Assembly (NCBI RefSeq): GCF_904830925.1 | Contig: NZ_LR882967.1 | Coordinates: 3,618,106-3,682,105 of the forward strand | Origin: Planktothrix pseudagardhii | Lineage (GTDB): Bacteria; Cyanobacteriota; Cyanobacteriia; Cyanobacteriales; Microcoleaceae | Direction: 5' to 3' | Length of the DNA stretch: 64,000 nt | Shown here: piece by piece, positions 25,295 through 36,883 of the stretch | Layout of the letters: each line of letters begins with the position of its first letter | Numbering within the stretch: position 1 is the stretch's first letter | Translations under genes and position numbers: made by a program | The notes under the pieces: generated by a model | What the model was told of the DNA's origin: nothing | What the model saw: the letters and a program-made list of their open reading frames with translations, nothing else | Databases searched by the model: none

Positions 25295-26740
25295 TTGATA
25301 CAAAATCAGTACACTGATCCCCCGGCTCCTCCTCCTATGCTTACAGCTAGTTCTGAATTTGTCCAACTCTGTCGCACGCAATTGTCATTGACGGCGAGTT
25401 TAGGTGCGTCCTTGAGTGTGGTGTATTTGGCTGAGGCTTGGGTGGATGAGGAACATCAGAAATTAATTCCGATCGCCACTTATCCTGAAACCTCCCTGGA
25501 AGATTTGGATATTCCGGGTTTGATGCGCTTTCCGACCCTGTTAACTCCAACTCTACCTCGTTTGTTAACAACAGAAGAAATTACCAAAACCTGGATTTTG
25601 TTACCTGCGGTGGATATCAATGATTTTATAGAAGCCGAAGCACAGGGAGAGCAACCCCTAGAAGAAGAGGAAAGTTGGCAACAACGCAGTCAAACGGTGT
25701 TACCTTTAATTCAAGAAGAGGTGGTCTTAGGCTTTTTAGTAACGGGACGCAATGATCGTTCCTGGAACCCAGAGGAATATGGCCAATTGCAAGGAATTGC
25801 CCATACCTTAGCCCTGGGTTGTATTTTAGATCAACGCTCCCAATGGTTCCAACAACAATTAAGCCGACAACAACACCTACAGGCGCAACAAGCCGATGCC
25901 CTTCATAATATCTTTCATCAACTCAAAAGTCCCCTCACGGCGGTGCGTACCTTTGGAAAATTATTATTAAAGCGGTTACTACCGGAAGATAAAAACTATC
26001 CAATTGCCAATAGTATTTTACGAGAAAGCGATCGCATTCAAGAGTTGTTACAACAAGCTGATCAAACTTTAGACCGCACAGAACCTGCTGTAAGCTTACC
26101 CCTAACCGTTGATTCTGTCTTAATTTCCATGCCGCCTAGGGAAGAAGCCACGTCTGCGTCCTCAATGTTAACCTTGTTACCCGCTTGGGATCAACTCGAA
26201 TTCCTAGAATTGTCTGAGGTCTTACAACCGTTAATTTTATCAACCCAAGCGATCGCCGAAGAACGACAGCTTCAATGTTTTGTTGACCTTCCCCCTAAAT
26301 TACCCGTGATCCAAGGGAATCATAAAGCCTTGCGAGAAGTCTTGAGTAACCTCCTCGATAATGCCTTAAAATATACCCCACCAGGCGGAAAACTTTGTAT
26401 TCGAGTGCAACTGACTCAAAAACGGAAATCTCAACCCCTGCAAGTAGGAATTGGCATTAGTGATACTGGCCCCGGTATTCCACCCGAAGATTTAACTCAT
26501 TTATTTGAACGTCACTATCGAGGTGTCCAAGGACGTTCTGAAATTCCGGGGACAGGGTTAGGGTTAGCGATCGCAAAAACCTTAGTCGAACAAATGCAGG
26601 GAAAGATTGAAGTGTTCTCTCCTGTTAATTCGGTTTGGGTCTCCAAGGAGATGCTTTCTCGGGGGAATATTCCTAGAGGAACTACATTTATCGTTTGGTT
26701 AAAGGGTGTTACTCCTGATCAAGAATTGAACAGAAGTTGA
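25295..26740 (+). CDS. Sensor histidine kinase with an N-terminal GAF-like domain
   Basis: The H-box is LHNIFHQLKSPLTAVRTFGKLL. The HATPase_c region contains LSNLLDNALKYT, ISDTGPGIP and GTGLGLAIAKTLVE. Confidence 0.8.
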   Translation: MIQNQYTDPPAPPPMLTASSEFVQLCRTQLSLTASLGASLSVVYLAEAWVDEEHQKLIPIATYPETSLEDLDIPGLMRFPTLLTPTLPRLLTTEEITKTWILLPAVDINDFIEAEAQGEQPLEEEESWQQRSQTVLPLIQEEVVLGFLVTGRNDRSWNPEEYGQLQGIAHTLALGCILDQRSQWFQQQLSRQQHLQAQQADALHNIFHQLKSPLTAVRTFGKLLLKRLLPEDKNYPIANSILRESDRIQELLQQADQTLDRTEPAVSLPLTVDSVLISMPPREEATSASSMLTLLPAWDQLEFLELSEVLQPLILSTQAIAEERQLQCFVDLPPKLPVIQGNHKALREVLSNLLDNALKYTPPGGKLCIRVQLTQKRKSQPLQVGIGISDTGPGIPPEDLTHLFERHYRGVQGRSEIPGTGLGLAIAKTLVEQMQGKIEVFSPVNSVWVSKEMLSRGNIPRGTTFIVWLKGVTPDQELNRS

Positions 26741-26862: not shown

Positions 26863-27501
26863 ATGAGTGCATCCAGTAACCCTGATAATCTGATTAATAA
26901 CCCAGTGAGTTCCTCTGTTCCTTTAGAAGAAAATTCAGGTAAACCACTTTCTTATGTTGCCCAGGAAGATATCATTTATCGTGCTTTTGATCGCAAAACC
27001 GTCTGTCGGGTTTTAAGCCAAGCTCATATTTATGTTTCCATTCGCTGGACAAGAACTCATCTTTATATTGGCATTCCCAGCACCGTTTTAGCGGCTGTTG
27101 CTGGTGTGCAAGCCATCTCCAGTTTAGGCGGAAATTATCAATTAGTGGCGGTGATTATTCCCGTTTTAGTCGCTATTCTTGCACCGTTATTAACCTTTTT
27201 AGATCCCAATGGTAAAGCGAATACCCATTTAGTCGCCTCCAGGGTTTATGAACAAATGGCCGATCAATATGATTCATTTTTACTCAAATGTCGTTTAGAA
27301 CCCCGACCCATCGAGGAAGAACTGAATGATTTAGTTCAGATAAATTCTGTGTATAGTGAAAGTAAAAAATCCCTTCCGGCTTGTCCTGAATGGGCGTATC
27401 AAAAAGCCCTCCGCACCGAAAATGACATCCAAAAACTGATTCCTGATGAGATCAAGAAAGCTGGAGGGTATGACAAATATATTGCCGATGCGCCCTCTTG
27501 A
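26863..27501 (+). CDS. Small 2-TM protein with SLATT-like organisation (soluble N-region, two adjacent TM helices, helical C-region)
   Basis: 212 aa. The TM helices IGIPSTVLAAVAGVQAISSL and LVAVIIPVLVAILAPLLTFL are separated by a short loop. The post-TM ...NTHLVASRVYEQMADQYDSFL resembles the conserved H...Y...L helix of SLATT domains. This is my recollection of the family pattern, not a database hit. Confidence 0.35.
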   Translation: MSASSNPDNLINNPVSSSVPLEENSGKPLSYVAQEDIIYRAFDRKTVCRVLSQAHIYVSIRWTRTHLYIGIPSTVLAAVAGVQAISSLGGNYQLVAVIIPVLVAILAPLLTFLDPNGKANTHLVASRVYEQMADQYDSFLLKCRLEPRPIEEELNDLVQINSVYSESKKSLPACPEWAYQKALRTENDIQKLIPDEIKKAGGYDKYIADAPS

Positions 27502-27622: not shown

Positions 27623-28315
27623 ATGGGTAACACACAATCTGATTTAGAAGGATTAGAAATTACACCAGGGGAAATCAAACATTGGAGTGGTATTAATCAG
27701 AAGTTACTCTACCGACCAGCTACCGTTAAAAAATTATTAGGGGAAGGTTTAAAAACCTTTTTTATCTTTTTATTATTATTAATGAGTTATTGGATTTGGA
27801 GTTTAATTTTTCCAGAACTCTCTTTAATTTTAATCATAATTTATTTAACCATTGGGGGACTATTAATTCTTGAGGATAGTGTAAAACTGTGGAATACCTT
27901 AACCCGTCCCCAATTCGTTAAACTGTGTCATCAAGTGGAGCGTTATAACGCCATTGTTAAAGCCTTAAAAATTTATGATCAACTCGATGCAATAGCCCAT
28001 CCCCCTGGAAAATTAAACAATCGAGAAGCTATTATTGCAGCTTTAAACTTAATTAGAACAGAATTAATTAAAGGATTAAAAATAGAACGAACCTTGAAAA
28101 AACATCAAAAATTTATTCAGCAATATTCCGAACTTTTTGATCCAAATTTCACCGCCTTAACGGTCTTACAAACAGAAAAACCCACAACAGAACAAGGAAG
28201 ACTCCTGTATCAAGCCTTTGAAATTGCTTCAGACGTTCATCAACAATTAAAACAACTTCAGGAACAACAGATTTCCCCTAATCGCAAGCAACAGACAATC
28301 AGAAACAAGGAATAG
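27623..28315 (+). CDS. Small 2-TM hypothetical protein with a C-terminal helical / coiled-coil region
   Basis: 230 aa. TM helices FFIFLLLLMSYWIWSLIF and LILIIIYLTIGGLLIL. It is co-directional with the upstream SLATT-like gene and the downstream module. Confidence 0.35.
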   Translation: MGNTQSDLEGLEITPGEIKHWSGINQKLLYRPATVKKLLGEGLKTFFIFLLLLMSYWIWSLIFPELSLILIIIYLTIGGLLILEDSVKLWNTLTRPQFVKLCHQVERYNAIVKALKIYDQLDAIAHPPGKLNNREAIIAALNLIRTELIKGLKIERTLKKHQKFIQQYSELFDPNFTALTVLQTEKPTTEQGRLLYQAFEIASDVHQQLKQLQEQQISPNRKQQTIRNKE

Positions 28316-28567
28316 GAAAAAAATCAATCTAAGCTGCTATTACATTTAAAGTGTATATTCTAGGGAGCGGGGACGCTCCAACTACAAGGAATTGGCAATT
28401 TCCCCATCACCATTAGAGACTGAATAGCTTATATTAATCACTATTCTGGCGACTTATTGTCAACCCTTGTCCAATAAACGGGTAAAAAAAGTTTCACCCC
28501 AACCCCTTCTGGATAACCTGGTTTTACGATATGATAAGGAACTGTATAAGTTTCTAAGTAAACTATC

Positions 28568-29716
28568 TTGAGTGAGATTTGTACCCCAGTCGCACCAGGT
28601 CAACCGTTGACACCTTACCAGAAAATTGGTTTGGAATCAGTCACTCGTCTACATGGCGGACGGGATGTGGTACTGGCGATTGACCTAACGGAAAGCGTCG
28701 GTTTGAATGATGAAGGTCATTTGCGTTTACGTCAAATTGTTGAAGATAGCTTAAAATCAGGAGACACCGTTTATGTTGTGCCTTTTGCTACAAAAACTAA
28801 CCCTTCAACACCTGAGATCAACCCTTTAACTTTAGAAACTGCAATTCAGTTTAAAGGGAAAGCCGATGTAGAAAAGATTTTACAATTAATTCCCTTTCAG
28901 CCTGACCTGAGATTACAAAATACCGATATTCAACAAGCTGAGTTAACGATTTATCAGGGTTTAGCAGATCTCAATCAATGTCGTTTAACCCAGAATCAAC
29001 CGATTAAACCGCAATCGATTGTTTGGATTACCGATGCACCGTTATTTACAAAATCCCCTGCTACCTCTGAAGAATGGACGGAAACCCCAGCAGACAGTCC
29101 TTTCCGAATAGCAACTTCTCCAGAAACACAACAGCGCCAAGAGTGGTTAAATCAATTACCTTTAAATCAGCGATCGCTTCCGATTAAAACTCAAGAACAG
29201 CGACAATATAACCTAACAATTGTTGATATTCCTCCGAATGTTCAAGAGTTCTGTACTCCTACCCCCGGACAGAAAGAAACTTGTTTAGTTTCTCCTTATT
29301 TATGGAAACAGTTATGGCTACCCGGATTAATTTTAGGAATTTTAATTCTTGCTAGTGTCGGGATGGGAATTAAAATTTATCGTTTGAATAAAAAATGGAA
29401 ACTGATGGTTAATTTTGATGATGATGATCAGGTAGCAGATCAAACCTGCTCTCTCGGTAATCATCAAAGAATTGCCATTGGTGAATATGAATCTGGTTGT
29501 CAGGATACCATTGATTTACCTGGAGCAGAAGTTCGGGCTTATTTAGTCAGAAAAGGAGAAAAACTTTATTTAGAACCGACGAACAATAGCCGGATTGAAT
29601 ATCAAGACAAAATTGTCGATCAAAAAATCCAAATAACCAGAAGTAGGATAAATTTTAATTGCCCTAATCCTAAACCTCCCAAAAACTACAGATTAACCAT
29701 TAAAATTCAAAAATAA
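28568..29716 (+). CDS. vWA-domain (MIDAS DxTxS) protein with a single TM helix and a C-terminal FHA-like domain
   Basis: The N-terminal ...DVVLAIDLTESVGLND... fits the vWA MIDAS motif (DxS/TxS). A Pro/Thr/Gln-rich linker follows, then the TM helix LWLPGLILGILILASVGMGI. The C-terminal approximately 100 aa (...RIAIGEYESGCQDTIDLPGAEVRAYLVRKGEKLYLEPTNNSRIEYQDKIV) follows the FHA pattern. The ORF begins with a non-ATG (TTG) start in the track. Confidence 0.5.
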   Translation: MSEICTPVAPGQPLTPYQKIGLESVTRLHGGRDVVLAIDLTESVGLNDEGHLRLRQIVEDSLKSGDTVYVVPFATKTNPSTPEINPLTLETAIQFKGKADVEKILQLIPFQPDLRLQNTDIQQAELTIYQGLADLNQCRLTQNQPIKPQSIVWITDAPLFTKSPATSEEWTETPADSPFRIATSPETQQRQEWLNQLPLNQRSLPIKTQEQRQYNLTIVDIPPNVQEFCTPTPGQKETCLVSPYLWKQLWLPGLILGILILASVGMGIKIYRLNKKWKLMVNFDDDDQVADQTCSLGNHQRIAIGEYESGCQDTIDLPGAEVRAYLVRKGEKLYLEPTNNSRIEYQDKIVDQKIQITRSRINFNCPNPKPPKNYRLTIKIQK

Positions 29717-29737: not shown

Positions 29738-32700
29738 ATGCAAGCTAATGATTATCAACTGCAAGGAGTTCAACGCACAATTTGTATCGGATTAGGAGGA
29801 ACAGGACGAGATGTTTTAATGCGAATTCGGCGGTTAATTGTAGAAAAATATGGAGATTTAACAGAACTACCAATTGTTAGTTTTGTTCATATTGACACAG
29901 ATAAAACTGCCACTCAGTCCGCCAGTTTAAAAACAGGTAATACCTATCGGGGTGTTGATTTAAGTTTTCGAGATTCTGAAAAAGTAAATGCCATTTTAAC
30001 TTCCGCAGAAGTAACCAATTTTGTGCGAGGTGTAGAACAGCGTTCTAAATCCAATCGTTCTGGGCCGTTTGATCATATTTCTCGCTGGTTTCCGCCTCAA
30101 TTACTTCGTAATATTAGAGCCGTTGAAGAAGGAGCAAAAGGAATTCGACCTGTGGGAAGATTAGCGTTTTTTCATAATTATCAAAAGATCAAAACTGTCA
30201 TTGAAACCGCAGCAAAACGGACAATGGGTCATGAAGCAACCTTACTGAAAGCCAGATTAAAACTTGAACCCGGATTAAATATTTTTGTGATTGGTTCCCT
30301 CTGTGGCGGTACAGGAAGCGGAATGTTTTTAGATGTTGCTTATAGTTTAAGGAAATCCTATGGAGATAAAGGCACGCAATTACTCGGATATTTAGTGGTA
30401 AGTCCACAGTTATACAGCAATGCGTCCTATATGAATGCTAATACTTATGCAGCCTTAAAAGAACTCAATTATTATAGCAGTGCGGGGACTCGATTTGAAG
30501 CTTGTTATGATATGCAAAATTTGGTAATTGTTCAGGAACCTCGCGCCCCATTTGATTATACTTATTTAATTTCTAATGAAACGAACGGTGAATATACAAT
30601 CTTAGAACAACAAAAATTATGTAATGTAATTGCCCATAAAATCGCGTTAGATTTTATCGGAGAATTAGCCCCTGTTGCTAAAGGAATGCGGGATAATTTA
30701 CTAAACCATTTAATTCAATCGGATAATCATCCCCGTCCTAATACTCAAGGATATTTAACCTTTGGCTTGGCTGCGATTTATTTTCCTCGTGAAATTATCG
30801 TAAAAATTGCCTTAAATCGAATTAGTTTAAAATTGGTTAATTTTTGGTTAAATGGAGAAGGTCAAAGTCCCGATCCTCAATTAATTATTGAACAATTTTT
30901 GATTAAATATAATTGGTATAGCGATTTAATCCAACGGGATGGGTTTAAAGAACGACTTGCTGGAGGCGTTCAAGAAGGGAGCAAAAACTTTTCTACGACC
31001 TTAACTAAATTCAGAGAGAAATTAATTCAAAAAATTAATGAGTGTAGAAATAGTGAAGATCGGCTCAGTTTAAAAAACAACTTATTACGAGAATTACGAG
31101 AACAGTTCAGAAAAGTTCTGCCGGGAGAAACGGAAACAACAAGAGGAATTTGGTTAACTCGGTTAATGCAGGTACAACCGCTCATCGCTCAACAATTGAA
31201 AAATCATATTAATGAATTTATTGAGGAATTAATGACCCCTAGCAATCCCAAATTTTCGACTAAAAGTGTTCGTGATTGGTTAGAGGCGATGCAAACAGAA
31301 TTAAACACCTATCAACGTCAGTTAGAGGAAGAAATTAGTCAAGGGGAAGGAATGAAAAAAAATGAAGACTTAGAGAAAAAATTGCGAGATTTAGAACAGA
31401 ACATGGATGAGATAGAGCAAAGAATTGAACTCCCCATACTGAATCGTAAAAATGCCGATATTCAGAGATTAGCGAGAAACGTTGTTCAAAGTATTATGCA
31501 GTTAATTCAGCATAATTTCAAATTAGCAGTAACTCAAGAAACATTAAAAATCGTCAATGATTTGCAAAAGTATGTTAGAGATTGTTCGACTGAAGTTGCC
31601 ACCTTTAGCCGGATGATCGAAAATTTAAAAACGAATTATGAGAAAGAACAAAATGATCTGATAAATTCTAATTTTAATGAAATGAGTGGAGAAGCTATTT
31701 TTGCTCAAGAAGATATTGAAGAATGTTATCAAACCTTATTACCTGATTTAGAGTTTCGCTCTGCATTGGTGTTAGTGAGTAAAGATATTACAGAGGCATC
31801 TGGGGTAGGAGAATCGATCTGCTATTTAATTAATCGTACCACTGGAGAGCAACTGAAAACAGAAATTGATCAAAAAATAGATGGTGAATTTGGTTCTCGG
31901 AGTAACCAAATTGTTAAATCTGTGATTAAGCGTTTTATTCAAAAATATTCTGGGTCAATTCGTCCTACCCGTTTAGGACAAATTATTGAGCAGGCAGAAC
32001 CTTTATTACGTTTAAATGTGAGTGATCCTTATTTTTCTAATCTTTCGGATAAACGAAAAGAATTTATTGGATTTAAAGATACCGATGAGGTAGAAGTAAA
32101 TCAGTTTAAAATGACTCTGACTCGTGATTTGGGAATCGACCCAACGGCTTTAAAACCGACTCAAGCTGAAGATCAAATTTTAATTGTTCGGGAATATGGT
32201 GGGTTTCCTTTACGGTTGATTAATGGTTTAGAAGAAATCAGAAATCATTATATCCGAGAACAAAATAAAGATGGCTCAACTTGTCATTCTGATTATCAGA
32301 TCCCCTTTACTGATATTATCCCCCCAGATGCTAGACTCATGGAAGAATTGGAAGATGTTTTCTATCCTTGTTTAGCATTTCAGTTAATTGTTAAAAATCC
32401 TAAAAATCAAGGCTTAGAGTTTCAATATTACGATAATTTACGAGACTATTATTATACAGCAGAACTGAACCCAATTTGGAATCAAGCGTTAGAAGAACTA
32501 GCGAATCACCGAGAAATGACGAAAACGTTAAACGAGTTATTAGAGGAGGAAATTAATCAGATTCGTCAAAATCCTGATCTCTGGAAAAGTCAATATTTAC
32601 CCAGATTACAGCAATTTGTGGATTATGTGGATAATTTACCTGAATCTAATCCTAATTATCTTTATAAATCAACGGTTGTGGGGACTCCGGGTACAATTAA

Positions 32701-32965
32701 TAATTTAGGACATGAAGGAGTTATTAATCGTTTTCGTCGAAAAATTCAGGAAAGTCTAACTAAGACTGGAAGTTTACCAACATCGGTTAATGACGATTCT
32801 GCCGCTTTAGTAAAGCGTGGAGAAAATTCCAGAGATTTTAACCAAAGTGATGACAGTTTAGAGGCAAAATTAAGGCAGCTAAAACAAAAATTAGATCAGG
32901 GGTTCATTACTCAAAAAGGATATGAATTTGAGAAAGAAGAAATTCTACGGAAATATGGTTGTTAA
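29738..32965 (+). CDS. Giant tubulin/FtsZ-superfamily GTPase (FtsZl1-like) with a long alpha-helical extension and a C-terminal SHOCT-like motif
   Basis: 1075 aa. The N-terminal glycine loop RTICIGLGGTGRDVLMRI is T1/phosphate-binding-like. GSLCGGTGSGMFLDVAY contains the tubulin/FtsZ signature GGTGSG. NYQK is followed by a T7-like region. The remaining approximately 650 aa are Glu/Lys/Gln-rich helical. The C-terminal ...LRQLKQKLDQGFITQKGYEFEKEEILRKYGC matches the SHOCT short C-terminal domain pattern. Confidence 0.7.
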   Translation: MQANDYQLQGVQRTICIGLGGTGRDVLMRIRRLIVEKYGDLTELPIVSFVHIDTDKTATQSASLKTGNTYRGVDLSFRDSEKVNAILTSAEVTNFVRGVEQRSKSNRSGPFDHISRWFPPQLLRNIRAVEEGAKGIRPVGRLAFFHNYQKIKTVIETAAKRTMGHEATLLKARLKLEPGLNIFVIGSLCGGTGSGMFLDVAYSLRKSYGDKGTQLLGYLVVSPQLYSNASYMNANTYAALKELNYYSSAGTRFEACYDMQNLVIVQEPRAPFDYTYLISNETNGEYTILEQQKLCNVIAHKIALDFIGELAPVAKGMRDNLLNHLIQSDNHPRPNTQGYLTFGLAAIYFPREIIVKIALNRISLKLVNFWLNGEGQSPDPQLIIEQFLIKYNWYSDLIQRDGFKERLAGGVQEGSKNFSTTLTKFREKLIQKINECRNSEDRLSLKNNLLRELREQFRKVLPGETETTRGIWLTRLMQVQPLIAQQLKNHINEFIEELMTPSNPKFSTKSVRDWLEAMQTELNTYQRQLEEEISQGEGMKKNEDLEKKLRDLEQNMDEIEQRIELPILNRKNADIQRLARNVVQSIMQLIQHNFKLAVTQETLKIVNDLQKYVRDCSTEVATFSRMIENLKTNYEKEQNDLINSNFNEMSGEAIFAQEDIEECYQTLLPDLEFRSALVLVSKDITEASGVGESICYLINRTTGEQLKTEIDQKIDGEFGSRSNQIVKSVIKRFIQKYSGSIRPTRLGQIIEQAEPLLRLNVSDPYFSNLSDKRKEFIGFKDTDEVEVNQFKMTLTRDLGIDPTALKPTQAEDQILIVREYGGFPLRLINGLEEIRNHYIREQNKDGSTCHSDYQIPFTDIIPPDARLMEELEDVFYPCLAFQLIVKNPKNQGLEFQYYDNLRDYYYTAELNPIWNQALEELANHREMTKTLNELLEEEINQIRQNPDLWKSQYLPRLQQFVDYVDNLPESNPNYLYKSTVVGTPGTINNLGHEGVINRFRRKIQESLTKTGSLPTSVNDDSAALVKRGENSRDFNQSDDSLEAKLRQLKQKLDQGFITQKGYEFEKEEILRKYGC

Positions 32966-33027: not shown

Positions 33028-34599
33028 ATGTTGTTTCCTTCTTTTCCTCCTTTACCGCCTTTGTTAATCATTTTGATCGGGATATTTGTGTTTATTCCCT
33101 CGATCATTACCCTCTATTATCGCTGGAATCTTTATCAACATTTAACCACTCAAGCGAATAAAATTTATCAGATTATCAATAAACGGGAGCTTGAACTCCC
33201 GCCTGCGATTGTACAAGTTTTAGAACAGAGTTTTGCAGAATCCAGCCAAAATTTAGAACAAGTGAACACGGCGGCTTTGATTGATCAAGCCTACAGCCAA
33301 GAAAAGGTTTTAGGGAAATCCTGCGAACAAATTGAATATTGGTGTCGAATTATTCCGAATTTACTCCTGGCTTTTGGATTAATTGGAACCTTTATTGGAA
33401 TTACGGTCAATTTGGGTTCTTTGAGTCAAACTATTAGTCAAAGTCAAGCAACGGATGTTAGTCAGTTAGTAGAGGAATTAAAACAACCCCTAGAAGGAAT
33501 GGCGATCGCTTTTATTACCAGTTTAGCTGGGTTATTGTGTAGTGCATTATTAACTGTTTTAAACTTTTTATGGAATACGAGTCTAGCGAAATATCGTTTA
33601 ACGGTTTCTTTAGAACATTACCTCGATAATATTTATTATTCATCCTTAAATGGTCAAACTCGGTTGGATAAAGTTGTTAAAGGAATGTCGAGTGAATTTA
33701 AAGATTTTTTAGATCGATTTGGTATTACTGTTAGAGATGCGGTGGAATCTGCCATGAGAGATAATATTCATCAAATTACAAAAGCGAATGTAGAAGCGAG
33801 TGAATTAGCTCTAAAAGTCTATAGTCAATTATCCAATGCTACAGGAACGTTAGAAAGGGGAGCTAGAGAGTTTCAAACCGCCACAGAAAGTTTTACAAAT
33901 GCGGTACAAGTGAGTAACACAACGGCTGATAAATTAGAACAAGTTGCTCAAGGTTTTGAACAAAGTGAATTTCCTAAACAATTATCAATAATCGCTACTG
34001 ATTTTGGAGAGAATCAAAAGAATTTTTCTGACTCAGCATTCGGTTTATTTCAAACGGTTAAATCTTTGGAAACAATATTAAATCAACTTCAGATCTTTAC
34101 AGAGCAGTTATTAAAAACGGAAACAAAATTAAGTGAACTTAATCAAAGTTCCTTACAAGTTTTAGAGTTAAATCAAATTAATCAACAATCCCTAGTTGAA
34201 ATTATTCCTCAACTGCAACAAGGAGGAAAAAGCTTGGAGTTAAGTTCTCAAACGTTAGAGAATATCCAAAACAAACTTATTGATAAATCCGATCATTTAG
34301 AAGGTATTCATAAACAATTAGAAACCTTAGTTAAAACCCTTAATAGTTATACAAATACAGTGAATTTTGAACTAGAATCTTTAAGTAAAATGATGAATAA
34401 GCTCATTAAAGAACAAACAAATAGTAGTCAGTCCTATTCACAAGTCTTAGCGGATAAATTAGAAGCAGCAATTAAACCTAATATTAAGTATATTATTGAG
34501 ATGAAATCTGATTTATCTCAGGTACTTAAACTCTTAAAAGAACAAAGCGGTAATCCGGGAATTAAGAAAAATAAACCAAAATTTTGGGAAAGTAAATAA
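33028..34599 (+). CDS. MotA/TolQ/ExbB-family proton-channel protein with a long C-terminal coiled-coil tail (ZorA-like architecture)
   Basis: 523 aa. The TM core has the family motif LLLAFGLIGTFIGITVNLG and LEGMAIAFITSLAGLLCSALLTVLN (compare LGLLGTVIGI / A..TT.GL of MotA/ExbB). Approximately 330 C-terminal residues are Gln/Ser/Asn/Glu/Leu-rich and predicted helical. Confidence 0.65.
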   Translation: MLFPSFPPLPPLLIILIGIFVFIPSIITLYYRWNLYQHLTTQANKIYQIINKRELELPPAIVQVLEQSFAESSQNLEQVNTAALIDQAYSQEKVLGKSCEQIEYWCRIIPNLLLAFGLIGTFIGITVNLGSLSQTISQSQATDVSQLVEELKQPLEGMAIAFITSLAGLLCSALLTVLNFLWNTSLAKYRLTVSLEHYLDNIYYSSLNGQTRLDKVVKGMSSEFKDFLDRFGITVRDAVESAMRDNIHQITKANVEASELALKVYSQLSNATGTLERGAREFQTATESFTNAVQVSNTTADKLEQVAQGFEQSEFPKQLSIIATDFGENQKNFSDSAFGLFQTVKSLETILNQLQIFTEQLLKTETKLSELNQSSLQVLELNQINQQSLVEIIPQLQQGGKSLELSSQTLENIQNKLIDKSDHLEGIHKQLETLVKTLNSYTNTVNFELESLSKMMNKLIKEQTNSSQSYSQVLADKLEAAIKPNIKYIIEMKSDLSQVLKLLKEQSGNPGIKKNKPKFWESK

Positions 34600-34733: not shown

Positions 34734-35456
34734 ATGCGTCGTCCGACTCAAATTAAAAATTCATCGGAAGATTTGAATGTCTGGCAAGCATTTACAGATT
34801 TAATGTCTAATGCTTTTTTAATTATGAGCTTGTTTTTATTGTTAGCCATTGTTAAATCATCGTTATTAACTTCTAATTCAAAAGAAAAAGATCAGAAAAT
34901 TAAAGGCTTAGAATTAACAGTTGGTTCATTAAAAAACGAAATTGAACGATTAAAAGCTCCACCAGTCATTGTGATTAAAGATTCTGATCGAGATGCACAG
35001 GGGCGATCTTTAAAATTTGAGACAGGTAAGGCAGATTTACCGGAAGGGTTGCGAATTTTTATTGAAGGGAATGTGGTGGAAAAATTAGAGGAATTTTCTA
35101 AAGTTTATCAAGGTTATGTAGTGGATGTAATTGGACATACTGATGGTCAAGAAACCTTTAATCCTGCTAGTAATTTAGATCAAATCTTAGAACAAGTTGC
35201 ACAGGGGAACCAACCTGTTAAAAATCTCAAACCCGGTTCCAATGCTGATTTAGGATTAATGCGCTCTTTAGCAGTTGTTAAAAAACTCCAAGCTATTCAA
35301 GAACAAGGTCGTTTAAAGGGGTTAAAATTTAGAGCTTATTCAGCCGCACAATTATTTTTACCTTCAGGACAATATGCGTCGCAAAATCGTGCTTCTGATG
35401 AAACAAGAAGACGTATCGAAATTCGCTTTACTCCCCCAGGAGTTGAACAATATTAA
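34734..35456 (+). CDS. MotB/OmpA-family partner: single TM with conserved Asp, C-terminal OmpA-like peptidoglycan-binding domain
   Basis: 240 aa. The N-terminal WQAFTDLMSNAFLIMSLFLLLAIV resembles the MotB/ExbD plug-TM segment (Asp in FTDLMS). The C-terminal VIGHTDGQE...NADLGLMRSLAVVKKLQ...RRRIEIRF matches the OmpA_C consensus. Confidence 0.65.
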   Translation: MRRPTQIKNSSEDLNVWQAFTDLMSNAFLIMSLFLLLAIVKSSLLTSNSKEKDQKIKGLELTVGSLKNEIERLKAPPVIVIKDSDRDAQGRSLKFETGKADLPEGLRIFIEGNVVEKLEEFSKVYQGYVVDVIGHTDGQETFNPASNLDQILEQVAQGNQPVKNLKPGSNADLGLMRSLAVVKKLQAIQEQGRLKGLKFRAYSAAQLFLPSGQYASQNRASDETRRRIEIRFTPPGVEQY

Positions 35457-35692: not shown

Positions 35693-36883
35693 TAAGCTGT
35701 TAAGCATCTAAATAGGGTATAATGAAAAACCAAGTTTAGAAAAATCAATCAAAAGATGCCTGCTAAAAATCATTTAAATGAAAAGCAAGTAGAGAAACTA
35801 CAGAAAAGATTGAAAGAGGAAGAAAATGGACAAATCCGAGAAAGAATCTTGATTTTATTATTGCTAAATGATGGTAAAAAGCAAAGTGAAATTGCCAAGT
35901 TTTTGGGCTGCTCATTAAACAAAGTATGTTATTGGTGTGTACATGGAGACCCTGACAAATTAGAAAGCCTAAAAGATGAAAGAATGAAAGGAAATTATAG
36001 AAAAGCCACAGACAAATATATAGAGATATTATTAGAAACAGTAGAAAAAGAACCGGAAGAATTAGGATATGAATTTGGGAGATGGACAGGAGAAAGATTG
36101 GCAACTTATTTAGAACAAATCACAGGAATCAAATTAAGTAGTTCACAAGTGAGAAAGATATTAAAGGAAAAAAAGTATGTTTATTTGTGGGCAAAGTATA
36201 GCTTAGAAGAGAAAAGAGATCCAGAAAAAAGAAAATTATTTAAAGATAAAATAGAAGAATATTTGAAAATAGCAAAAGAAAGTCCAGAACAATTACAGGT
36301 ATGGTTTTGGGATGAAAGTGGATTTAATTTAAGAGTGATAAAAAGAAAGAATTGGTGTAAAAAAGGGAAGAGGAAACAGATTAGAGGAGACAGGAGGAAA
36401 GGAAGAGTTAATGTGATGGGAGGATTGAGGTACTCGGATAAAAAAAGATTTGTAGAATTTCTGGATAAAGGAAATGCAGATAATTTTTATCAAGTGTTAA
36501 AAAGTTTTTATCAAGAGCTAATTTATGAATGGGTATTAGCGGGAAATCAAGCAGAAGAATTTGTAGAAAAAGGAGCTAAGATCCTGATTATTCTTGACAA
36601 TGCAAGTTTTCACAAAAAAGAAGAGTACCTAGAAAAAATTAAAGCAGAAATGCCGAATGTCTATTTAGAATTTCTTCCAGCATATAGTCCAGATTATAAT
36701 TTAATTGAATTAGTCTGGCATTCAGCTAAAGAATATATAGCTCATCGACTCTTTAAATCAGTTGATGAGCTAGAGTGTTTATTACATCAGCTTTTAAATG
36801 AAGGACAGTTATCTATTAAATGGGGACGTAAACTTAAAAACAAAGGTAATGCTATAATCACAGTTTAAATACACAACAGCTTA
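35693..36883 (+). mobile_element. IS630-family insertion sequence, copy 2, identical to copy 1 and in the same orientation
   Basis: 35693-36883 matches 14432-15622 base for base across the compared sequence and carries the same TA-flanked imperfect inverted repeats. The flanking sequences differ on both sides. Confidence 0.8.
35756..36868 (+). CDS. IS630-family transposase (identical to 14495..15607)
   Basis: The 370-aa translation is identical to copy 1. Confidence 0.85.
   Translation: MPAKNHLNEKQVEKLQKRLKEEENGQIRERILILLLLNDGKKQSEIAKFLGCSLNKVCYWCVHGDPDKLESLKDERMKGNYRKATDKYIEILLETVEKEPEELGYEFGRWTGERLATYLEQITGIKLSSSQVRKILKEKKYVYLWAKYSLEEKRDPEKRKLFKDKIEEYLKIAKESPEQLQVWFWDESGFNLRVIKRKNWCKKGKRKQIRGDRRKGRVNVMGGLRYSDKKRFVEFLDKGNADNFYQVLKSFYQELIYEWVLAGNQAEEFVEKGAKILIILDNASFHKKEEYLEKIKAEMPNVYLEFLPAYSPDYNLIELVWHSAKEYIAHRLFKSVDELECLLHQLLNEGQLSIKWGRKLKNKGNAIITV

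Follow-up and report, generated by a model that had tools for sequence, protein, structure and literature searches.

A vWA-transmembrane-FHA-like protein encoded with a tubulin-like GTPase and a ZorAB-like motor in cyanobacteria: predicted architecture, conserved neighborhood, and a possible coupling role

Introduction

In a 64,000-nucleotide stretch of Planktothrix pseudagardhii DNA (contig NZ_LR882967.1, positions 3,618,106 to 3,682,105; the whole stretch is called "the window" below), the gene at 28568-29716 encodes a protein of 382 residues that is predicted to combine a vWA domain, a single transmembrane (TM) helix, and a C-terminal FHA-like domain. It is the first gene of a cassette of four, whose other members encode a tubulin-like GTPase and two subunits resembling the ZorAB motor. 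We propose, with a probability of roughly 0.55, that this protein is a membrane-spanning coupling subunit, linking the tubulin-like GTPase to the ZorAB-like motor or to an envelope component through phospho-independent FHA docking, with the vWA domain probably in the periplasm.

According to this proposal, the FHA-fold domain would sit on the cytoplasmic face of the membrane, directly at the membrane, and would dock the tubulin-like GTPase via its conserved apical loops without any need for phosphothreonine. The vWA domain, with an intact MIDAS metal site, would bind an acidic residue of a partner, probably from the periplasmic side; the likeliest candidate is the ZorAB-like 5:2 motor, driven by protons, or else some component of the envelope. 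The predicted folds, the motifs, the synteny, and the rate covariation are the observations behind this proposal, from which we infer how the subunit is oriented, what it binds, and which way signals pass.

The Tubulin_2 gene family, which corresponds to FtsZl1 (PMC2875224 and PMC9871819), is the least understood branch of the tubulin superfamily, and since 2010 it has been given two competing readings, membrane remodeling and biological conflict. The features on which our argument draws are as follows; residue conservation in the vWA-TM-FHA protein was counted over an alignment of 113 sequences.

28568-29716, forward strand: vWA-TM-FHA-like gene, 382 residues, cassette gene 1; an open reading frame (ORF) with 569 homologues, present in 80/80 fetched cyanobacterial loci
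28568-28570, forward strand: TTG start codon, at a position where the start is non-ATG family-wide
28658-29233, forward strand: divergent vWA domain, about residues 31-222
28682-28696, forward strand: MIDAS loop 1, D39-L-T41-E-S43, invariant (113/113), at the C-terminal end of strand 33-39
28922-28927, forward strand: MIDAS loop 2, T119-D120 (T 109/113, D 111/113), directly before helix 121-141
29033-29035, forward strand: MIDAS loop 3, D156, invariant, after strand 149-154
29234-29311, forward strand: juxtamembrane segment, residues 223-248, with C229 and C239 (C-x9-C, both Cys 113/113); the best-conserved region, mean column identity 0.85
29312-29383, forward strand: predicted single TM helix, about residues 249-272
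29387-29713, forward strand: C-terminal domain with a predicted FHA fold, residues 274-382, with non-canonical loops G305-E306, P318-G319-x-E321-x-R323, and P337-T338
29390-29398, forward strand: basic/aromatic flank K275-K276-W277 after the TM helix (K in 102 and 103 of 113, W 113/113)
29738-32965, forward strand: Tubulin_2/FtsZl1-family GTPase, 1075 residues, with a long helical C-terminal extension (Pfam PF13809, E 3.2e-109)
33028-34599, forward strand: ZorA-like MotA/ExbB-family subunit, 523 residues, with a helical tail of about 340 residues (PADLOC ZorA1, E 1.4e-12)
34734-35456, forward strand: ZorB/MotB-like subunit, 240 residues (PADLOC ZorB1, E 5.1e-9)

The vWA domain and the membrane segment

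The AlphaFold2 model of the full protein, built from the 113-sequence alignment, has a predicted local distance difference test score (pLDDT) of 84.2 and a predicted template modeling score (pTM) of 0.70. The N-terminal domain is predicted to adopt a Rossmann-like alpha/beta vWA fold, in which all the elements of a MIDAS site (the DxSxS/DxTxS motif, the Thr, and the Asp, on three loops) lie at the expected ends of strands and helices, metal binding itself being a prediction. A reading of the DNA made without database searches (the sequence-only reading) had picked out the DxTxS motif, and its three residues D39, T41, and S43 are indeed identical in all 113 sequences. In Foldseek searches the domain matches ITIH1 (E 5.8e-4, probability 0.97), and its top structural matches include the extracellular MIDAS domains of alpha2delta-1, CLCA1, and ITIH. 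Its second half is atypical, with a long loop at 155-177 and a beta-hairpin at 200-221.

At the level of profiles the domain is hard to recognize. No curated vWA profile in Pfam or NCBIfam matches the window protein above threshold, and searches of the whole protein against Pfam, NCBIfam, and PADLOC gave zero matches. A divergent member, P0134, reaches 22.6 bits against Pfam VWA_2, under the gathering score of 27, and the distant relative P0192 alone passes it, with 29.5 bits. Because P0134 and P0192 match VWA_2, the vWA assignment has transitive sequence support.

Between the vWA and C-terminal domains lies one hydrophobic peak (KD19 2.11, residues 250-268), all other segments scoring 0.69 or less, and AlphaFold2 predicts a continuous helix over residues 241-274. 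The single TM helix of the sequence-only reading is confirmed by this pattern. Its sequence is poorly conserved (0.53), as expected of a lipid-facing helix. No signal peptide is present in any cyanobacterial family member checked.

The FHA-like domain and the question of phosphothreonine

The C-terminal 109 residues, modeled alone, gave a pLDDT of 90.6 and an 11-strand beta-sandwich of the FHA type. Foldseek relates this model to FhaA (E 3.6e-5, probability 1.0), and the predicted fold lies closest to the phosphothreonine-binding FHA domains of Rad53 FHA1, FhaA, GarA, and Ki67. The arrangement of vWA (MIDAS), TM, and FHA-like domains that had been read from the sequence is correct, structure prediction being the one approach that showed it; the profile check proposed along with it failed for FHA and succeeded for vWA in P0192 alone, whereas both folds were recovered in the models.

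In the strand-order map of the model, beta3 comprises residues 301-304, the beta3-beta4 loop 305-312, the beta4-beta5 loop 316-323, and the beta6-beta7 loop 338-343. Mapped in this way onto the model, the canonical set of phosphothreonine-binding residues (Gly-Arg, Ser-x-x-His, and Asn) appears to be reduced to the Gly, which is kept as G305. The position of the phosphate-binding Arg, residue 306, is Glu in 93 sequences and Asp in 18, and hence acidic in 111 of 113 (98%). Ser-x-x-His is absent, with P318-G319-x-E321-[VI]-R323 in its place, and the position of the Asn-Gly loop is variable among the 113 sequences. The Pfam FHA models PF00498 and PF16697 match none of the C-terminal domains of 31 members at E <= 10, and when the C-terminal profile was compared by hhalign with six canonical FHA sequences, the probability was 0.8% and no residue alignment resulted. 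Across the loci examined, no kinase or phosphatase is conserved beside the cassette. In short, the phosphothreonine dependence that the sequence-only reading had attached to this domain found no support. R323 (109/113) and T338 (102/113) sit in the FHA-like binding loops.

A conserved four-gene cassette

Over 80 cyanobacterial loci, four families are conserved, namely the vWA gene (80), the tubulin gene (76), the ZorA-like gene (69), and the ZorB-like gene (68), with the next family at 21. The order vWA, Tubulin_2, ZorA-like, ZorB-like is kept across about 70 of these loci. In the window the Tubulin_2 gene begins 21 nucleotides 3' of the vWA-TM-FHA gene, and it is found directly downstream of it in 76 of the 80 loci. 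With a vWA gene beside a Tubulin_2/FtsZl1 gene, the cassette belongs to the FtsZl1-vWA systems. From one cyanobacterial order to another, the cassette keeps 50-65% identity. Its flanks vary with the genus and, where inspected, consist of housekeeping genes (psbO, a sigma factor, and an ABC ATPase, identified by eye). The cassette is chromosomal, and tblastn found no homologue of it on plasmids or phages.

Judged from their sequences, the three partners look functional. The tubulin GGTGSG signature is conserved at 96-97%; the ZorA-like PNLLLAFGLxGTFxG motif is nearly invariant, with the P, N, L-L, and G/T/F positions at 100%; and the TM aspartate of the ZorB-like subunit, D22, is conserved at 97%. 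The motor genes score 30.9 bits against NCBIfam ZorA_2 (cut-off 100) and 15.3 bits against ZorB1 (cut-off 400), below the family thresholds for Zorya. The partners that define the Zorya types (ZorC/D, ZorE, ZorF/G) are not found in the cassette: the window vWA protein has no PADLOC match, and the tubulin has chance-level, non-Zor matches only.

Covariation of the two ends with different partners

Pairwise distance matrices were computed for each region in the 60 loci with all four genes, and the mean of the other regions was regressed out to give partial correlations. The FHA-like domain covaries with the tubulin GTPase region (partial r 0.56, taxon-bootstrap confidence interval 0.39-0.68) and with the tubulin C-terminal region (0.55), about as strongly as the tubulin regions covary with each other. 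For the vWA domain, the values against tubulin are -0.14 and -0.02, and those against the ZorA TM region, the ZorB periplasmic domain, and the ZorA tail are 0.41, 0.32, and 0.33. The vWA and FHA-like domains, which belong to the same polypeptide, give -0.05. Over 400 bootstraps the differences stay clear of zero, and they are still seen when the set is thinned to 36 taxa. Recombination breakpoints are an unlikely cause, because the pattern is independent of DNA adjacency. This covariation lends indirect support to a bridging role, and to which end may face which partner. Together with the strict synteny of the four genes, it speaks, again indirectly, for the earlier suggestion that the protein bridges the tubulin-like GTPase to the membrane complex.

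A relative outside the cyanobacteria

Homologues of the protein number 569 at E <= 1e-3, and the named ones are all cyanobacterial, with 50-95% identity; many carry the NCBI label "VWA domain-containing protein", and the Planktothrix locus L001 is 93% identical. A HMMER search of 1.84 billion representatives returned 75 matches, nearly all of them family members or fragments, and a profile search of PDB sequences with the family gave chance matches only (best E 0.15). By sequence, the family appears tight and isolated, and P0192 seems to be its only bridge to other vWA or FHA families.

P0192 (545 residues) is the sole detectable relative outside the cyanobacteria and comes from a metagenome-assembled genome of the Armatimonadetes (JACPDT010000105.1; locus L081, 4112-6959). 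It begins with a signal peptide, continues with a VWA_2 domain, a middle domain, and a TM helix, and ends in a domain for which hhalign supports homology to the FHA-like domain (E 1.2e-4), the "GE" motif being shared. The next gene encodes a short Tubulin_2 protein (367 residues), and ZorAB-like genes are absent from the locus. With P0192 as query, a homologue search returned only P0192 itself. Since this locus has the pair without motor genes, the vWA-TM-FHA and Tubulin_2 pair is the older core, to which the motor was added in the cyanobacteria.

Membrane topology

Several observations favor a protein with the vWA domain outside and the FHA-like domain inside, which we regard as probable, though well short of certain. 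The positive-inside rule points this way, since the 15-residue TM flanks carry on average 4.3 lysines plus arginines on the C side and 1.4 on the N side, and K275, K276, and W277 are nearly invariant. The invariant C-x9-C pair lies on the vWA side, beside the membrane. P0192, with the same architecture and a neighboring Tubulin_2 gene, has a classical signal peptide. Finally, the FHA-like domain covaries with tubulin and the vWA domain with the motor.

The N-terminal tail, residues 1-30 (28568-28657), contains conserved P10-G11-Q12, Q18, and G21-L22 and a predicted helix at 16-29 before the vWA core; it is not hydrophobic. This tail could bear on whether the N-terminal domain is exported and by what route. 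We considered and rejected the idea that a signal peptide is added by an upstream extension or a frameshift: most loci have an in-frame stop 0-10 codons upstream, and the upstream frames contain no hydrophobic leader.

Weighing the coupling role against other readings

Several points weigh against the coupling subunit as we describe it. All structural statements about the protein rest on AlphaFold models, and the FHA ligand positions were assigned by strand order on the predicted model, not by residue-level structural alignment. R323 and T338 might conceivably bind phosphate. The covariation may arise between regions that share a compartment or are expressed together, with no contact between them, and a two-cluster pattern can be inflated by the partial-correlation design. 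Export of a 250-residue N-terminal domain without a signal peptide would be unusual, and the opposite topology is possible. In that arrangement, a cytoplasmic vWA domain would bind the tubulin-like GTPase through its MIDAS, and a periplasmic FHA-like domain would contact ZorB or peptidoglycan. The missing signal peptide agrees with it, proteins with a late first hydrophobic segment usually insert by a type II signal-anchor (N-in, C-out), and many bacterial vWA domains are cytoplasmic (PMC7159879). It would, however, break the positive-inside rule strongly, carrying K275, K276, and a mean of 4.3 basic residues across the membrane, and it would run against the covariation, which joins the FHA-like domain to the cytoplasmic tubulin and the vWA domain to the periplasmic domain of ZorB. 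To our knowledge, FHA domains are otherwise cytoplasmic. Moreover, the signal peptide of P0192 precedes its vWA domain, and the vWA proteins of other FtsZl1 operons carry signal peptides (a reviewer comment printed with PMC2875224). We consider the inverted arrangement rather unlikely, if still a serious contender. It is improbable, and less credible than the inverted arrangement, that the FHA-like domain is a genuine phosphothreonine reader, in an adaptor recruited or released by Ser/Thr-kinase signaling. Its nearest folds do belong to bona fide phosphothreonine-binding domains, Ser/Thr kinases are frequent in the FtsZl1 neighborhoods of other phyla (PMC2875224), and R323 and T338 are conserved in the binding loops. 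Against this stand the loss by strand order of the canonical phosphate ligands, the conserved acidic pair E306 and E321 on the binding face, the failure of Pfam and hhalign to connect the domain with canonical FHA sequences, and the lack of a conserved kinase or phosphatase next to the cassette. An ancestral phospho-dependent role of the domain is conceivable.

The system as a whole could serve in remodeling of the envelope or the membrane, or in surveillance for phages and other conflicts. We lean toward a cell-envelope role, because the cassette is chromosomal and vertically conserved and its flanks are housekeeping genes; the similarity to Zorya keeps a defense role as a live alternative. 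As an anti-phage or conflict cassette, it would comprise a Zorya-like sensor motor, with the tubulin and the vWA protein replacing ZorC/D/E as effectors and the vWA-FHA protein acting in the effector or trigger module. The best profile matches of genes 3 and 4 are ZorA and ZorB, Zorya is an established defense system (cited in PMC12204202), the tubulin plus vWA systems of Firmicutes and Actinobacteria have been classed as conflict systems (PMC7159879), and the window has a SLATT_4 gene upstream of the cassette and an IS630 transposase downstream of it. Nevertheless, the motor scores fall far under the NCBIfam cut-offs, the cassette has no homologue of ZorC-G, its chromosomal setting without plasmid or phage copies and its 50-65% identity across cyanobacterial orders fit defense poorly, and the SLATT and IS630 neighbors are not conserved, with housekeeping flanks in other genera. 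A defense function is possible but on the unlikely side. More doubtful is a TonB/TolA-like force transducer, in which the TM helix would attach laterally to the ZorA-like pentamer and the vWA domain, in the periplasm, would be pulled or rotated to act on an outer-envelope target, leaving the tubulin as a secondary regulator. Force transduction has been proposed for vWA proteins that are tethered to the inner membrane and encoded beside TolQR-like motors (PMC12204202), and here the vWA domain covaries with the TM region of ZorA and the periplasmic domain of ZorB. In the known examples, however, the TM segment is N-terminal, either a helix with an SHLS motif or a TolR-like Asp helix, and a linker connects it to a vWA domain at the C-terminus. 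Our protein has the reversed order and no long linker, and its poorly conserved TM helix lacks a His or Asp motif; the Armatimonadetes pair, moreover, exists without motor genes.

If the coupling reading is extended further, one arrives at an integrin-like outside-in axis, in which the periplasmic MIDAS vWA domain and the ZorAB-like motor would sense an envelope event and, through the TM helix, the phospho-independent FHA domain would nucleate or anchor tubulin-like polymerization at the membrane. This extension is speculative, and we hold it to be doubtful. If true, it would represent a new coupling of a motor to a cytoskeletal filament for envelope repair, remodeling, or abortive defense in multicellular cyanobacteria.

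A conserved non-ATG start

The sequence-only reading had noted a TTG start and had left the N-terminus uncertain; the start stands, while the uncertainty does not. Among the 78 homologous loci with a locatable start, all 78 begin with a non-ATG codon at the position of 28568 (GTG 49, TTG 29, ATG 0), the distance from start to AIDxTESVG motif is 33-38 codons, and in most loci an in-frame stop lies 0-10 codons upstream. Alignment of the proteins shows conservation from about residue 8 onward. In the window, no ATG occurs between the TTG and the MIDAS motif, and inspection of the upstream sequence for an alternative in-frame start, as had been advised, found none, a TAA stop standing in frame at 28559-28561. 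Because homologous loci keep GTG or TTG at the same position, with stops close upstream and an alignment conserved from about residue 8, TTG 28568 is the true start. A weak initiation codon would then be a conserved trait of cassette gene 1, implying low synthesis relative to tubulin and perhaps setting the stoichiometry.

Upstream of this start, -10-like TATAAT boxes lie about 25-40 nucleotides away, and no clear Shine-Dalgarno sequence is seen. An Rfam scan of the 5' region gave no match. Promoter and terminator scans remained at chance level (17 observed versus 25 expected, and 3 versus 4.6); the operon structure is therefore drawn from gene spacing and synteny only.

Neighboring genes and irregular loci

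Upstream of the cassette lie a SLATT_4 gene (26863-27501; NCBIfam 94 bits; PADLOC "2TM effector", E 1.8e-20) and an unannotated gene of 230 residues (27623-28315). Both are conserved only in the Planktothrix locus L001, and so they are not parts of the cassette. A histidine-kinase-like ORF of 481 residues, called with a TTG start, is found further upstream on the same strand (25295-26740) and is likewise conserved beside the cassette only in L001. The IS630-family transposase (35756-36868; NCBIfam E 5.8e-80), about 300 nucleotides downstream of the ZorB-like gene, is not conserved elsewhere.

Within the tubulin-like protein, residues 1042-1073 (32861-32956) weakly resemble the DMAP1-binding and SHOCT domains (Pfam E 4.5e-4 and 0.36), and locus L011 has a similar motif, "ITRKGYEIKRQQILKKY". 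This could be an oligomerization or docking peptide.

In some lineages, ORFs of 1-8 kb are inserted between cassette genes (L011 11109-12107 and 15486-16316, with similar gaps in L003, L013, L031, and L042). Similar gaps occur in the Hormoscilla loci L052, L053, L055, and L060, in which zorAB-like genes lie upstream of or apart from the vWA gene. The inserted ORFs were considered as extra cassette components and rejected; in L011 they resemble, by eye, selfish elements of the Rpn / PD-(D/E)XK transposase type with QQGI repeats. In a Nostoc metagenome-assembled genome (L036, 14528-15282), the ZorA-like and ZorB-like matches are short and abutting (525 and 225 nucleotides), which suggests a deletion by which the motor genes were fused or inactivated.

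Comparison with known systems

Makarova and Koonin described vWA/FtsZl1 operons in 2010 and proposed a role in membrane remodeling (PMC2875224). Their supplement lists an orthologous operon consisting of Ava_1847 (vWA, COG2304), Ava_1848 (FtsZl1), Ava_1849 ("B7", membrane-associated), and Ava_1850 (COG1360), as well as equivalents in Trichodesmium (Tery_1709) and Microcystis. B7 is listed as an uncharacterized membrane protein, and the sections drawn on here describe the vWA protein only as a vWA protein that is often membrane-associated. Their vWA proteins belong to the same family as ours: Ava_1847 (P0034) is 57% identical to the window protein and stands in the same four-gene operon. The 523- and 240-residue genes of the window correspond to Ava_1849 and Ava_1850, and the presence of the B7 and OmpA/MotB-like membrane proteins places the cassette in the cyanobacterial subtype. 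In other words, the window gene is an orthologue of a family catalogued in 2010, not a new system, and the cassette is a distinct variant. Kaur et al. later placed the tubulin-plus-vWA neighborhoods of Firmicutes and Actinobacteria among conflict systems (2020; PMC7159879). The sections of the 2010 account drawn on here are silent on the FHA fold, on any likeness of B7 to ZorA, on the non-ATG start, and on domain-specific covariation. In the literature searched, no published account of the C-terminal FHA fold or of a ZorA-like B7, and no experiment on the cyanobacterial cassette, was found; the fold, the Zorya-like identity of the motor, the conserved non-ATG start, and the split covariation appear to be new details.

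These details give the conserved partner of FtsZl1 a concrete architecture, as modeled, in which a MIDAS vWA domain and a phospho-independent FHA fold lie on opposite sides of the membrane, and they identify the B7/COG1360 pair, from its sequence, as a ZorAB-like 5:2 motor that looks functional. An anonymous operon is thereby turned into testable hypotheses in tractable hosts, for example Anabaena variabilis and Nostoc. If the coupling role is true, an ion-driven motor of the stator type would for the first time be linked to a filament of the tubulin family.

Among known systems, Zorya resembles the cassette in having a MotA-like subunit with a long cytoplasmic helical tail and a MotB-like subunit with a TM aspartate, beside non-motor partner genes. 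It differs in that the cassette scores far below the ZorA and ZorB cut-offs, its partners are a tubulin-like GTPase and a vWA-TM-FHA protein instead of nucleases or helicases, the partner genes come first, and its conservation in cyanobacteria is vertical whereas Zorya is patchy. The TolQR-associated vWA "force transducers" (PMC12204202) share a membrane-anchored vWA domain genetically coupled to a 5:2 proton-driven motor, but the cyanobacterial protein has the reversed domain order, a TM helix without an SHLS/Asp motif, an extra FHA-like domain, and a tubulin partner. For the FHA-like domain, the closest known systems include the membrane-proximal, phospho-independent FHA-like domains of YscD/MxiG/PrgH in the type III secretion system and of EssC in the type VII secretion system. 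Integrin-type MIDAS receptors may be compared by analogy only: they too have a MIDAS vWA domain outside the cytoplasm, joined through a single TM helix to a short cytoplasmic module that is tied to a cytoskeletal polymer. Common descent is unsupported beyond the vWA fold, and in the cyanobacterial protein the topology is a predicted one, the cytoskeletal partner is homologous to tubulin, and the vWA domain departs from the usual form in its second half.

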